Shown: one piece after another, positions 20,401-25,719 of the stretch
Numbering within the stretch: the first letter of the stretch is position 1
Layout of the letters: every line of letters starts with the position of its first letter
Assembly (NCBI GenBank): GCA_964016885.1
Contig: OZ024744.1
Coordinates: 88,040,001 to 88,104,000 of the forward strand
DNA length: 64,000 nucleotides
Origin: Eledone cirrhosa
Taxonomy: Eukaryota
Direction of reading: 5' to 3'
Made by a program: the position numbers and the translations under genes
Notes under the pieces: generated by a model
What the model saw: only the letters and a program-made list of their open reading frames with translations
The model's database searches: none
Told to the model about the DNA's origin: nothing

Positions 20401-20965
20401 TAATTATTTTTCTTTCATCTACCTTCTTCAAGTATCTGCGTTTTTCGCTGACAGCTCTCAATTCATCTTTGAGGGTGATCAGCTTATATTGAAGAGTTCT
20501 GGTTCTACTTTTACCAAAATCATTTCTATTTTATTTTTCACTCTTTGTTTGTGAGGAGTGAAGTTTTTTTTTGGTTTTCATTGCATGTAAGGAGCATTGT
20601 CACATATCCTATGGTTTTTCGTAGGTCAGTAATCTTTTTTTTCTATTTTAGTTATATATGATGGTATTTTTGGCGGTGTCATGTTCTTGTTAATATCTCT
20701 GCTATCACCAAGATAATGTTTCACTGTCGTTGCTAAGGCATATAAATAGGCGTTCATTTACCAAAATGTATGTGTTTTAATCCGTCGTAAATATCCATTC
20801 CCTATTTCGTCAATAACACGTAATATTTCATTATTTGTTTTTTGTTATTAAATAATAGCATAGGCACCCGGCGTTGCCCGGTATAACTCTCAATGCAGTA
20901 GTCGTTCAAATTTGCCGAAAGACTTCCGTTAAACACGACTATAGAAGTAACAATTTATAGGTGTT

Positions 20966-21445
20966 GGCCCTAAAGAGGGCCTTTGAACGTTCACTTTGAA
21001 ATATCTCTGCGGTGTTGCTGCCAGTAAAGACGAATCCGATGCTAACAATTTAAAGTTGGTGGCCCTAAAGAGAGCCTTGGATCGTTCAATCTTAAAAGTC
21101 TCAGCGGCGGTGCTGCCAGCAAAGACGAATCCAGCGATAACAATTCATAGTTGGTGGCCCTGAAGAGGACCTTTTAACGTTCACTTTGAAATATGTGAGC
21201 GGCGGAGCTCCCAGCAAAGAAGAATCCGATGGTAATAATTTAAACTTGGTGGCCCTGAAGAGGGCCTTGGATCGTTCACTCTTAAAAGTCCCAGTGGCAG
21301 AGCTGTCAGCAAAGACGACTCCGATTAGAGGTGGTTGCTCTTAAGAAGTCCTTCACAACACTTTGGTGTGTCGTATTTGCTTTTCTTGTTATTTGAAATT
21401 GTAACCTAGAAAAGCATGTAACAGTCGGTGGCCACAAAAACGGCC
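20966..21445 (-). promoter_or_regulatory. Tandem array (95-bp period) of histone-mRNA-type 3' stem-loops inside the Helitron
   Basis: 16-nt hairpins at 20966-20981 (GGCCCU CUUU AGGGCC), 21061-21076 (GGCUCU CUUU AGGGCC), 21156-21171 (GGUCCU CUUC AGGGCC), 21251-21266 (GGCCCU CUUC AGGGCC) and 21430-21445 (GGCCGU UUUU GUGGCC). Flanks are CCAA/CAAA/AAAA 5' and mostly ACC 3'. Confidence 0.75.
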
Positions 21446-21705
21446 TTGGCAAGATCACGCTGGAATGTCAAAAAAATGTGTATATAAGATGTAGGGAAAA
21501 GTAGATAAATCGAACTACGGAACATCGATAGCAAAGCGTAATAGCAACATATAAATGAGACATTGAACATTTATAACGTATAGCAAAAGCAACCTCAGAG
21601 GCGTACGTGGTATTGTCAAAAGGACAAAAATAGCACACGGATACAGCAAATGTAAGCACTTATACAAAAAAAAAAACACCGATTACTTATTGGCGAATGG
21701 GGTGC

Positions 21706-22230
21706 CTACAAAACTTCCTTATAGACTATATTTGGGGTTTTCTCGAGAGTTCCAAAAGCAAATAGGTTATGTCGGCTCCCCCTCGAGAGCAGCCAACATA
21801 TATTTGACCATGTGAGAAGCACGGTTCTTCTAAATTAAGCCCTACGACCATCAGCGTCTGACCCTATGATTTGTTAATCGACATGGCGAAACTGAGAGGG
21901 AATTGCAGCCTTCTGAATGTGAAAGGAATCTCTTTACCGGAAGGAATAAGAGGTAACTTTGGTATGAAGACAGTATCCCCCTTACCACATCCTGTAAATA
22001 TTGTTGCTTCAATAACAAGAGGCACCACCTTTTGAACGACCAGACGAGTGCCGTCGGAAAGCCTTCGGGGTTCGAAATTCCTGAGGAGCATGACAGGGGC
22101 ACCGTTCTTAATTCGCAGTAAGTGTGGTGGCAATCCGGGAAGGTCTAGGAAATTAAGAAATTCTGTGGGGTGATGAACAACTTCGTACGGATCAGCCATA
22201 GAGTCATGGGACTTGTAGATGTGCAGGTTT
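21706..22230 (-). pseudogene. Helitron RepHel PIF1-family helicase C-terminal remnant
   Basis: EFLN.LDLPGLPPHLLRIK.GAPVMLLRN...GTRL, FTFRRLQFPLSFAMSINKS*GQTL, PCFSHGQIYVGCSR, TPNIVYKEVL* (stop at 21706-21708). Confidence 0.9.
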
Positions 22231-22334
22231 CCAGGCCAGCACAGCGTAGTCGGAGGAGGGCTCGTAGTTTAGGCCTTCAACAGCCATCGTGAATTGCAAG
22301 TCCTAGAAATTCCATGTAATGATGATCGCCGCTG

Positions 22335-22727
22335 TTCACTTCCAGAAGTCGGCCACGTCGTTGGTCTATGGTTTCAGTATTTCGTGCAGCAGCAGTGGCA
22401 GTAGCGTCCCTGCTTCGTCGAACGGCGCGTCGTCCTTCATCCTCTCGCGCGCGAGCAGCGGCTGTTACAATGGCGCCCCTGCTTCGTTGAACGGCACCTC
22501 GTCCTTCATCCTCTCGAACGCGAGCAGCAGCAGTCGCGGCAGCATCTTTGTTCCGTCGAAGTTCACGCCGACTGTCATCCTCCTCCACTCTTGTAGCTGC
22601 CGTCTGCACAGCATTCTGTGAGAGCCTGATCGCAGTCGCATTTACATCTTCGGTGAGACGCCTTCGCTTAGATCTACTTGCATCATTATATAATCGACCA
22701 ATGAAAGTTCTTTTCTTGGGGGGCTTT
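22335..22727 (-). pseudogene. Helitron RepHel N-terminal remnant with 23-aa (STPR-like) repeats
   Basis: PPKKRTFIGR start region, then EDDSRRELRRNKDAAATAAARVR / EDEGRGAVQRSRGAIVTAAARAR / EDEGRRAVRRSRDATATAAARNT / ETIDQRRGRL. Confidence 0.7.
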
Positions 22728-23379
22728 GTTTTTATAAAATTAACCAGGGAGAATGATAAATAGTGGACAAATAACGTTTAAGTAAGCAAATTTAAACACG
22801 GGTATAAATTGTGAAAAAATATGATATATCTATGTGGTCTGAGAAAGTGGGTATGTTTTGCAAGATTTTGTGTACCAGTCAAATTTCAGGTTTTAAGTTA
22901 GGGGCAACGCAGCGTACGGACTACCTGTGATAAAGGAAATTAAATAGTGTGGCTACAGTGGTAGGTATATATGTGTCGGTATGTTTGTTCAGTTCGAACA
23001 TAGCAATAAGTAAGTACTAACCATTGAAAGGATACAGGCCAAAATGTCAGAAAAATCACAGCATGATAAACTGGAACCTTATGACCATAAACACATTAAC
23101 TAAACCTCTTTTAAGGTGACAAATGTTGAAGAAGCAGGCGTTTCGGAAACATGGGGTAGCTTATGAGAGTACGCATGTAAAAAAACCTACCACTTGTCAA
23201 AAGCCAAAAAAGAAGTGTGATCCTAGGTCGGACTTGACCGATATAAATAGGAGTGATTTCGCTCAATGAACAACACTCGAGTTGTCTGATTGATTAGATA
23301 ATACAAATAAGTGTGATGAAATCTACAGAACACAATTCACTGATGTGTGGTTGGCCAGAGGTCGCCATTTCGCACTTAC

Positions 23380-24400
23380 TTGAGGTGCAATTAAACGGGG
23401 GAGACAACATTGTGCAAAAACTAATCACTCATTCGCACAGTTTAGGCATGAGTGTGAAATAGCACAATCCACATACAGTAGGCATTAAAATTTACACCTG
23501 GGTTAAATCGCGCTTTCTTGGTTAGGAGTGTGAAATGACGCCAAAATTCAAGGAAACAAATTTAACTCCTCATTCCGCTCTTAACACGAGGGAGACAACT
23601 AGGTGCAAAATTCAATTCAATCATCCTAAAGTTAACTAATCAAACTAAAGTTAAGTCAGGGGGAATTAAAATTCGCTACTCCATCTGTAGGACATGAGTA
23701 ACCGATGCATCAACTTTCGTTTAAATTGACTTTTATTTCCAGAAGTTGAAATGCTTTGCTGCAACCATAATATGAACTTTAAAAGTGGTCCAAAGGGGCT
23801 CACTGCTCCCCCAGGTGATTCCTTTGTAAAATTCAAGTGATAACGAATGTGTGGTGCTTTATCTTATTGCAGGCAATAGGCATTTCGTTTAGTTTTTGTA
23901 AGAATCAAGTATAAACTCCCGAGGTTATGGTGCTTTTTTTATTGTGGCAGTTTGAAATTTTATAGGTTAATGGATTGGGCTCATTGTCCCCGAGGGGGTC
24001 CTCTTGCTGAATTGAAATGAAAGTAAATGTGCCTCACTGTATCTTCATCTGTAGTACATGAATAACAACTAAGTCGAAATTCGTTTTATTGGACTACCAA
24101 TTATCGAATCTATGACGCATTGCTGCATTACAATAGCCAAATTCAATAAATGACCCACCGGGGCTTACTGCCCCTGAGGGTCCTCTTGCTTGTTCCGGGT
24201 ATAGACAGTGTCTTAAACATCATCTTTAGGCAATGGGTGACCAATGTGTCCGGTAAAGTTAAAATCGAACGTAAACTTCAAAAGTTATCAGGTACTAATA
24301 CAGTGTTAATGTGAACTTCAATAGATAAATCGAAGGGACTTACTTAAGATGGTTATCTGCCCCGGGGAGGGGGGGGGGGCACAGCAATGCATGCGGTTAC
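23380..24400. repeat. Degenerate ~180-190-bp tandem repeats in the Helitron 5' region
   Basis: gggct(c/t)a(c/t)tg..ccc motif near 23796, 23977, 24160 and 24335; ggagacaac..gtgcaaaa near 23400 and 23591. Confidence 0.55.
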
Positions 24401-24741
24401 ACAATCAGACAGACATCTTCTGTTTTATATATAGATTGTTATTTTAATACGTTCAGCAAGAGAAATGTTTATACATTAATTAATTTCTCTCTGGGAGATG
24501 GGAGATTTCATTTAGAGAAATTTTCAATTTTTTTATACTTTTGATTATTATTATTATTATCGATAGTATTTTCCACAACAGTCGAGGTAGACTCAGATGG
24601 TATACGTGATGCCAAATTTCTTACGGGCATAGTTGTTTCAAGGCACTGTTCGACCTTGCTGCTAGGAAGTCTAGTAGCTTGGCGACCTGTAGCACGTGTT
24701 GTTGATTCCATGTTTGTTCTAGGGGACTTAGAATTGATAAT

Positions 24742-24853
24742 TGTTTCTACGTTAGGCACAAGGCCAGCAATTACCCAGTGTATTACTGGTACTTTATTTT
24801 ATCGACCCCGTAAGGATGAAAGGCAAAGTTAACCTCGGCGGGATTTGAACTCA
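24742..24853 (-). mobile_element. 5'-truncated SINE with 17-bp TSD
   Basis: gacttagaattgataat at 24725-24741 and 24854-24870. Confidence 0.88.
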
Positions 24854-25719
24854 GACTTAGAATTGATAATATTTATTTTTACGTTCAACAAACGTCGCTT
24901 GTTGGCGTAAGTGTTTCGCTGTGAAATGATTTAGCTCTAGATTTATTTTGTTCCAGTGTAGCTTCATTCTGTTCATATAGCCAACGGAAGGATTTTTTTT
25001 TTTTTTGCCATTTTATAACAATTAAATAAATCATCATTAAGTTCGCAACTCCAAGAGAAATGCGATTCAAATTTCGGTTTCTTCTGTAGCTACAACTGAA
25101 TAAAGTTTGTTTACTTTTATCGTTTATTTTCTACGGTATTTCCTTAATGTTATTGATGTTGTTGTGTTCAGCCATGCTGTTTGTAGCAGATCCTTATAAA
25201 ATGGATTATGTATTTAGTCGGTTATGTCTACGAATTCGAATAAAATGTGTCTTCAGTGGATATAGTTAGGAGAATATTCAGGCATTCAACATGACTGTAG
25301 TTGTGACATTACTGTCAGAGATAATATTCATCTTAAATTTAATGAATAGTCCCCCACGCCAAAATATGCGACTGATCGCGTTGACTGACTCTGTATATAT
25401 GTATGTGTGTATGAATGTATGTATTATGTATGTATCAATGTGTGTCTGCGTATCTATGTATGTATTTATGTATGTATGTAAGTATGTGAGTGCGTGTGTT
25501 TCGTGTATCTACATATATAACTATAAAATTACAGAAGAAAGTTCTTTTAAATTTAATTGCTTTGCACACGTTTCAATATATACATACACTCATACATACA
25601 CACACATATAAATACATACATCCATACATACATATATAGGTACATACACATACAAGGTCAGTTCCCTGGTGGAATCAGGATCCTGTCTTCTTTCCTACAA
25701 ACAATTTAGTTCATCCCAA

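Follow-up and report, generated by a model that had tools for sequence, protein, structure and literature searches.

The window, the whole stretch of 64,000 nucleotides analysed here, contains a Helitron whose RepHel stop codon is followed on the coding (minus) strand by a tandem array of histone-type mRNA hairpins, a known RNA element that is really present in a new setting. Hairpins with the stem of the host's own histone genes lie on the sense strand of six of this genome's Helitron families (A, B, C, D, G and I), behind the RepHel stop in the five coding families; the sixth, G, is non-coding. Because the hairpin has been kept while neighbouring sequence diverged beyond recognition, these Helitrons likely borrow the host's control of histone messages. 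We give a probability of about 0.55 to the reading that active Helitrons are selected to keep the hairpins, which host SLBP would bind on the RepHel mRNA. The evolutionary evidence for a hairpin function is fair, and it comes from other families, not from the window copy.

In the proposed mechanism, an ancestral Helitron would have captured a histone 3′ end, the captured unit would then have been duplicated in tandem, and it would have been retained for SLBP binding on the RepHel mRNA. Once bound, the message would be handled like a histone mRNA, translated and stable in S phase and stored in oocytes, so that transposase would be made when the element has access to host replication factors and to the germ line. 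The RepHel message would either end at a hairpin by U7 cleavage or carry the hairpins internally. To our knowledge, the stem-loop/SLBP system serves histone mRNAs alone. An SLBP-controlled transposase, if true, would be a natural exception and would offer a rolling-circle transposon a concrete route for timing its activity to DNA replication or the germ line; the timing of Helitron activity is an open question. We found no description of histone stem-loop or SLBP control of Helitrons in the openly accessible articles searched. The word ‘histone’ appears nowhere in the main text of a paper on Octopus vulgaris repeats (PMC13282606).

The Helitron in the window is an internally deleted, non-autonomous family-A copy of 3.6 kb (20855..24435, minus strand). 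Its 5′ TC is preceded by A and its 3′ CTAT (CTAG in the family) is followed by T; the Helitron hallmarks of 5′ TC, 3′ CTRR, a subterminal hairpin and an A/T target are all present, with the final base altered in this copy. The subterminal hairpin (20867..20881, minus strand) is an ordinary GC-rich one, separate from the histone-type hairpins. The element further resembles a canonical Helitron (RepHel: PF14214, PF05970, PF21530) in its PIF1 helicase, deletion derivatives and internal minisatellite. Unlike in a canonical Helitron, what was captured is a regulatory RNA element and includes no histone coding sequence; families have conserved it instead of letting it decay.

RepHel is identified by its PIF1 and Pif1 2B domains and by a longer copy (L110) that aligns to residues 77-1482 of a full-length RepHel; the window copy retains the tail only. 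This C-terminal remnant of the PIF1 helicase (Pif1 2B domain; 21706..22245, minus strand) contains an in-frame stop (21864-21866) and a late frameshift. Its natural stop is at 21706-21708, and both this position and the distances of 260-740 nt from stop to hairpins are correct in the earlier note. A deletion of about 3.4 kb of RepHel (at 22241-22245) joins the helicase tail to a repeat-rich N-terminal remnant of the frame (22241..22777, minus strand) that has no match in Pfam. With this deletion and the in-frame stop, the window copy cannot make RepHel; it is a dead relic, and its hairpins no longer matter.

The array could have been a histone-gene fragment captured once, in this copy alone. 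A search of the 3.0 Gb genome with the 3′ region of the element returned 252 candidates, of which 40 were scored (90-100% identity); the array is present in all 30 copies fetched, and further families carry homologous units. In a set of 30 family-A loci chosen by helicase, which overlaps the fetched copies and includes the window copy, 29 have one to five near-intact sense hairpins. Contigs under five other organism labels cover the array at a likeness of at least 80-85%, none spanning the whole stretch, and run X6 gives 5 contigs on the stretch that are uninformative on transcript ends. Neither AATAAA nor ATTAAA occurs within the 866 nt from the stop to the end of family A, where three TATAAA are found; the missing polyadenylation signals are a weak hint of a histone-like 3′ end. 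Unlike a replication-dependent histone gene, the window copy has no histone coding sequence upstream of its hairpins: tblastn of 7 host histones against 10 element sequences bears out the impression that no coding remnant is visible here, and elsewhere the best E was 0.12. Four family-A Helitrons stand in tandem at one locus, about 4.4 kb apart (G000:C1:163630052-163644307). A short repeat adjoining the Helitron 5′ end in the window (24737-24855) recurs at many loci with about 95% identity; we take it to be a common octopus repeat, and on this ground the host is likely an octopod.

Four hairpins of 16 nt each, with a fully paired 6-bp stem and a CTTY loop, make up the canonical part of the array. 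On the minus strand they lie at 20966..20981 (loop CTTT; RF00032 score 26.5 bits), 21061..21076 (CTTT, a single G.U pair; 24.3 bits), 21156..21171 (CTTC, a single G.U pair; 24.2 bits) and 21251..21266 (CTTC; 28.5 bits), the last being the first canonical hairpin 3′ of the RepHel stop. Their spacing of exactly 95 bp, already reported in the earlier note, was recovered both by a pattern scan, which found no other fully paired match in the 64-kb window, and by TRF, which gives 4.0 copies of a 95-bp unit (20948..21325, minus strand). A unit runs GTGAACG, 6 nt, hairpin, about 11 nt, ATTGTTA. All four hairpins have the features of RF00032 (GG...CC base, top U-A pair, U at loop position 3) and are flanked by A residues (AA 5′, A 3′); at loop position 1 they have C and not the U of the host. 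The stem variant with a G.U pair at 21156..21171 also occurs in host H2A/H2B genes. A fifth hairpin had been counted at 21430..21445 (minus strand), but it is weak (15.4 bits, E 0.63) and departs from the RF00032 feature set, the top C-G/U-A pairs being replaced by G.U/U.G; a degenerate sixth unit (21346..21361, minus strand), in which the family majority pairs at five of six positions and the window copy has decayed more, had been missed.

To judge these hairpins against the host, we assembled its histone stem-loops. Of 67 histone-fold matches we fetched 30 loci, whose core-histone genes have 33 distinct 3′ ends; another 4 stem-loops come from 12 H1-like loci (37 in total). The stem GG(C/T)CCT/AGGGCC occurs in 31 of the 33 core-histone genes and in all four H1 stem-loops found; the Helitron hairpin stem is this same stem, which upholds the histone-type identity first proposed from the window alone. 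Likeness to the histone mRNA 3′ stem-loop (RF00032; SLBP PF15247) extends from the host-identical 6-bp stem to the 4-nt pyrimidine loop with U at position 3, the top U-A pair, the A-rich 5′ and AC-rich 3′ flanks and the sense position behind a stop codon. The Helitron hairpins differ in standing behind a transposase, 260-740 nt from its stop (mostly 19-38 nt in host genes), in their tandem copies, in the C at loop position 1 (families A and G), in an extra upstream GTGAACG and in a weak, nearer downstream element.

Could a minisatellite hairpin have come to resemble the histone stem-loop by chance? None of the window hairpins, the fifth included, reaches the RF00032 gathering score of 34 bits (24.2-28.5 bits for the four; E 8e-6 to 3e-4 in a search of 951 bases), and the 65-nt segments around them show no folding advantage over shuffled sequence (z -1.64 to +0.16), with no outer helix between GTGAACG and ATTGTT predicted consistently across five folds. 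A low covariance-model score had been named in advance as grounds for doubt, and the scores are indeed below 34, yet this is no refutation because, of seven genuine histone stem-loops of the host (25.3-42.1 bits), five are also under 34. The stem is identical to the host's, and in 3.0 Gb the exact C-loop pattern has 356 matches and the T-loop pattern 1012, with 0 for each reversed control. In family I, 23 of 23 nt coincide with the 3′ end of a host H3 gene. With the host stem reproduced exactly in six families, a chance likeness is largely refuted, and we consider it highly improbable.

The loop is where the window hairpins depart from the host. It is TTTN in 37 of 37 host stem-loops, with C at position 1 in none, and position 1 is C in families A and G and T in B, C, D and I. 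The C had been read as a C. elegans-type variant. CTTT is indeed the form of the C. elegans histone hairpin (PMC1924863), and two of the four window hairpins have it, but here the host and four sister families have TTTN. Since it was not found in the 37 host stem-loops or in families B, C, D and I, C at position 1 is a family-level variant. Human SLBP is reported to tolerate C at this position, a result attributed to Michel et al. (2000).

One SLBP gene was found in the host genome. The sources cited describe a role of SLBP in histone 3′-end formation and a cell-cycle pattern (PMC1924863, PMC13525598), and a minimal SLBP site 20 nt long that includes two A residues on the 5′ side and one on the 3′ side (PMC10388802). 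In each Helitron family, the best match to the 3′ regions of host histone genes spans no more than 18-23 nt, roughly the SLBP footprint. H1 is a possible donor: the flanks are slightly alike, but the longest match is only 19 nt. In oocytes, the stem-loop region can also be bound by other proteins (PMC12803260). Repeats scattered through this genome contain roughly 1,300 exact histone-type hairpins. If transcribed, these could compete for SLBP; they will also mislead histone annotation based on stem-loops.

Families B and C were discovered by helicase likeness, independently of the hairpin, and A, D, G and I through the hairpin (D, I and G from pattern searches). The helicase-likeness sample comprises 20 loci with long open frames: three of family A, one of B, one of C-long and 15 without a hairpin (nine C-short, four E, two F). 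The B and C-long copies each carry an exact host-type hairpin, placed about 250-290 nt 3′ of the stop. When 16 C-long copies were chosen by a junction outside the hairpin, all 16 had the unit and 11 an intact stem. Deleted family-D derivatives and the non-coding family G also carry it. The suggestion that hairpins would sit in sense orientation 3′ of RepHel frames elsewhere too is thus supported, with homologous units in five further Helitron families, all sense.

Four related lineages are without the hairpin: it was not found in C-short (nine loci), E (four), F (two) or the distant family H (25 loci). C-short and C-long are identical at 91% of 100 four-fold sites, and C-short most likely lost the array. 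The hairpin is dispensable, since C-short, which is without the array, has 65 exact junction matches versus 16 for C-long. Among metagenome Helitron loci, 0 of 80 have the hairpin (67 with at least 300 nt downstream), the closest having a complete 3′ end with AATAAA and no hairpin; a viral collection gave one distant helicase only. A tree of 16 rows, which leaves out I and G, resolves only C-long with C-short and B with D, and places F beside B-D at 93/86. Because so few groups are resolved, a single gain followed by losses is indistinguishable from exchange between families. The lineages and metagenome loci without a hairpin count against SLBP control, as do the loop C seen in 0 of 37 host stem-loops, the low score of the host-type downstream element and the GTGAACG motif, for which SLBP binding does not account.

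Hairpins had been expected to be better conserved than spacers among copies, and they are not. In inserted copies, departures from the majority number 56 in 1133 cells at stem G/C sites (4.9%) and 141 in 2932 at non-CpG G/C sites of the spacer (4.8%; p 0.87), and 25 stem changes keep a pair while 36 break one. Copies of the window element decay neutrally, and this is expected because inserted copies are dead. The majority sequence of family A, which has four units, varies in 3 of 16 hairpin columns versus 18 of 42 distal columns, a modest contrast.

Between families, conservation is centred on the hairpin. Helicase synonymous sites among A, B and C are saturated, with identities at four-fold degenerate sites of 31% of 72 (A-B), 26% of 69 (A-C) and 25% of 71 (B-C), and yet families A, B, C, D, G and I have the same 12 stem bases in their majority sequences. 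When the best unit of each array is compared across 15 family pairs, identity averages 0.93 in the hairpin, 0.73 in the 17 nt upstream and 0.60 in the 22 nt downstream; in 60-nt windows beyond these flanks it is 0.48 and 0.49, versus 0.47 +/- 0.05 after shuffling. At 60 nt from the hairpin, sequence is at shuffle level, and the sister pair B-D is the sole pair alike further out. This conservation is inflated, since the hairpin itself led to A, D, G and I and the best unit of each array was compared. In family B, two diverged units keep 6 of 6 pairs, including the second G-C and the top U-A pair, despite changes on both sides of the stem. Stem changes pass through G.U pairs.

A neutral passenger would be a different account of the same hairpins: a histone 3′ end captured by chance, amplified and swapped between families, its symmetry kept by template switching and its apparent conservation produced by best-unit picking. 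Sequence capture is normal for Helitrons, and an unrelated Merlin-type element in this genome has taken up 64 nt from the 3′ end of an H4 gene (97% identity). The patchy presence of the unit, the poorly resolved tree, the neutral decay of copies and the inversion of the loop in 1 of 16 C copies would also suit a passenger. In that last copy (L344 / L322), the loop is inverted to GAAA while the stem is intact, likely by a template switch; such switching therefore acts on palindromes and can mimic compensatory change. A passenger should decay evenly, but identity falls from 0.93 in the hairpin to shuffle level 20-40 nt away. Template switching preserves symmetry, not the host sequence or the direction of the loop, and families B and C have 12 of 12 stem bases although they were discovered without the hairpin. 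We regard a neutral passenger as unlikely.

The motif GTGAACG is a feature that SLBP binding leaves aside. In the window (minus strand) it occupies 21273..21279, with 6 nt between it and the stem, and it recurs at 21178-21184, 21083-21089 and 20988-20994. All six families have it 6-8 nt ahead of the stem (as GAGAACG in C), and the hairpin is mostly followed by ATTGTT. A family-I row with shifted coordinates was left out of one supporting alignment. It is kept as well as the hairpin, also in units whose hairpin has decayed, and is found at this place in 0 of 33 host core-histone 3′ ends; SLBP does not explain its conservation. The coding end of H3 was rejected as its source on a mismatch of spacing.

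These observations favour an element that acts as DNA, in which GTGAACG, the palindrome and ATTGTT would form a protein site or a single-strand hairpin for transcription, replication or termination, unrelated to SLBP and captured or convergent in origin. The one to five near-intact units in 29 of 30 family-A loci suit multiple binding sites, and the unit is carried by the non-coding family G and by deleted D derivatives, but this retention is expected because both were discovered through the hairpin. Such an element leaves unexplained the match of 16 of 16 nt to a host stem-loop, the pyrimidine loop, the A/C flanks and the constant coding strand; it also sits badly with stem changes that pass through G.U pairs and with the good spread of C-short without the unit. 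We regard a DNA-level role as unlikely.

SLBP binding on the RepHel message would be compatible with U7 cleavage at a hairpin or with internal hairpins, and the earlier note had taken the missing purine-rich U7 element to favour binding over cleavage. This argument fails because the host downstream consensus is itself AAAGT followed by pyrimidines, mostly 14-15 nt 3′ of the stem. The Helitron sequence ATTGTTAC resembles this consensus weakly: family A scores 3.8-6.2 at offset 11 (p 0.12-0.32 versus random windows), where host genes scored leave-one-out have a median of 8.2 (range 0.9-12.8), and the element is 3-4 nt nearer to the stem than in most host genes. An Rfam search of the genome for U7 snRNA gave 4 matches, all below the cut-off, among 65 candidates scored; for the best of these, pairing with 37 host downstream regions is no stronger than with shuffled sequence (-2.83 versus -2.76 kcal/mol). 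A guessed U7 pattern gave 20 matches versus 43 in the control, none with a U7-like hairpin.

A second kind of transposon in this genome carries a histone stem-loop. At L123:1900-2808, a Merlin/ISXO2-like element (PF12762) contains, inside long inverted repeats, a 64-nt piece of the 3′ end of a host H4 gene (97% identity) that includes both stem-loop and downstream element. As in the Helitrons, the stem-loop is in sense behind the transposase stop, here by 138 nt (RF00032 34 bits). Unlike in the Helitrons, the capture is independent and recent, with a full downstream element and a match to one H4 gene. The same element is found at L116, L119, L122-L130, L133, L135 and L140-L143, and it makes up 17 of the first 30 loci of the T-loop pattern. 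It also occurs in 3 of 30 histone-gene loci (L034, L039 and L055; about 100 kb) versus roughly 0.02 expected, and may target histone clusters or stem from them. Capture of a histone 3′ end therefore recurs in this genome. This cuts both ways: it may be convergence, or proof that capture is easy here.

The 3′ slot of a hairpin-less lineage holds a different RNA candidate. A ribozyme scan of 15 loci, four of them from hairpin-less families, found an HDV-like ribozyme in a family-H copy (L205:3780-3859), about 310 nt 3′ of its RepHel stop, and none in the other three from such families. Its score (29.9 bits, E 0.002) is below the gathering score of 44, and a strict pattern with paired P1 and P2 arms and a C at the catalytic position occurs in 7 of 25 family-H loci. 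A literature search on Helitrons and HDV-like ribozymes gave a match that concerns R2 elements. We count the ribozyme as indirect support for SLBP control of the hairpin-bearing families.

A wider reading is that octopod DNA transposons may have hijacked the histone mRNA pathway at least twice, Helitrons long ago and Merlin recently, with SLBP-bound transposase messages timed to S phase or the oocyte. These would be the first non-histone animal mRNAs so controlled, and the Helitron 3′ UTR would be a slot for exchangeable RNA-processing modules, either a histone stem-loop or a self-cleaving ribozyme. We offer this wider reading tentatively, as possible rather than probable. A ready test set is at hand in sister lineages that either have or lack the hairpin, in the natural variation at loop position 1 and in the recent, independent capture by the Merlin element.

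Two further observations concern other repeats found in these searches. A third old, dispersed class with an exact histone-type hairpin (L134, L137, L138, L159, L171, L311 and L321) has purine-rich flanks, is about 75-79% alike over 60-90 nt in three pairs, and has no coding frame that we could find. Near-identical family-H helicases (L177-L204, on C19, C20 and C27) lie about 100-200 kb apart on few contigs, a spacing that likely reflects a very large segmental repeat.
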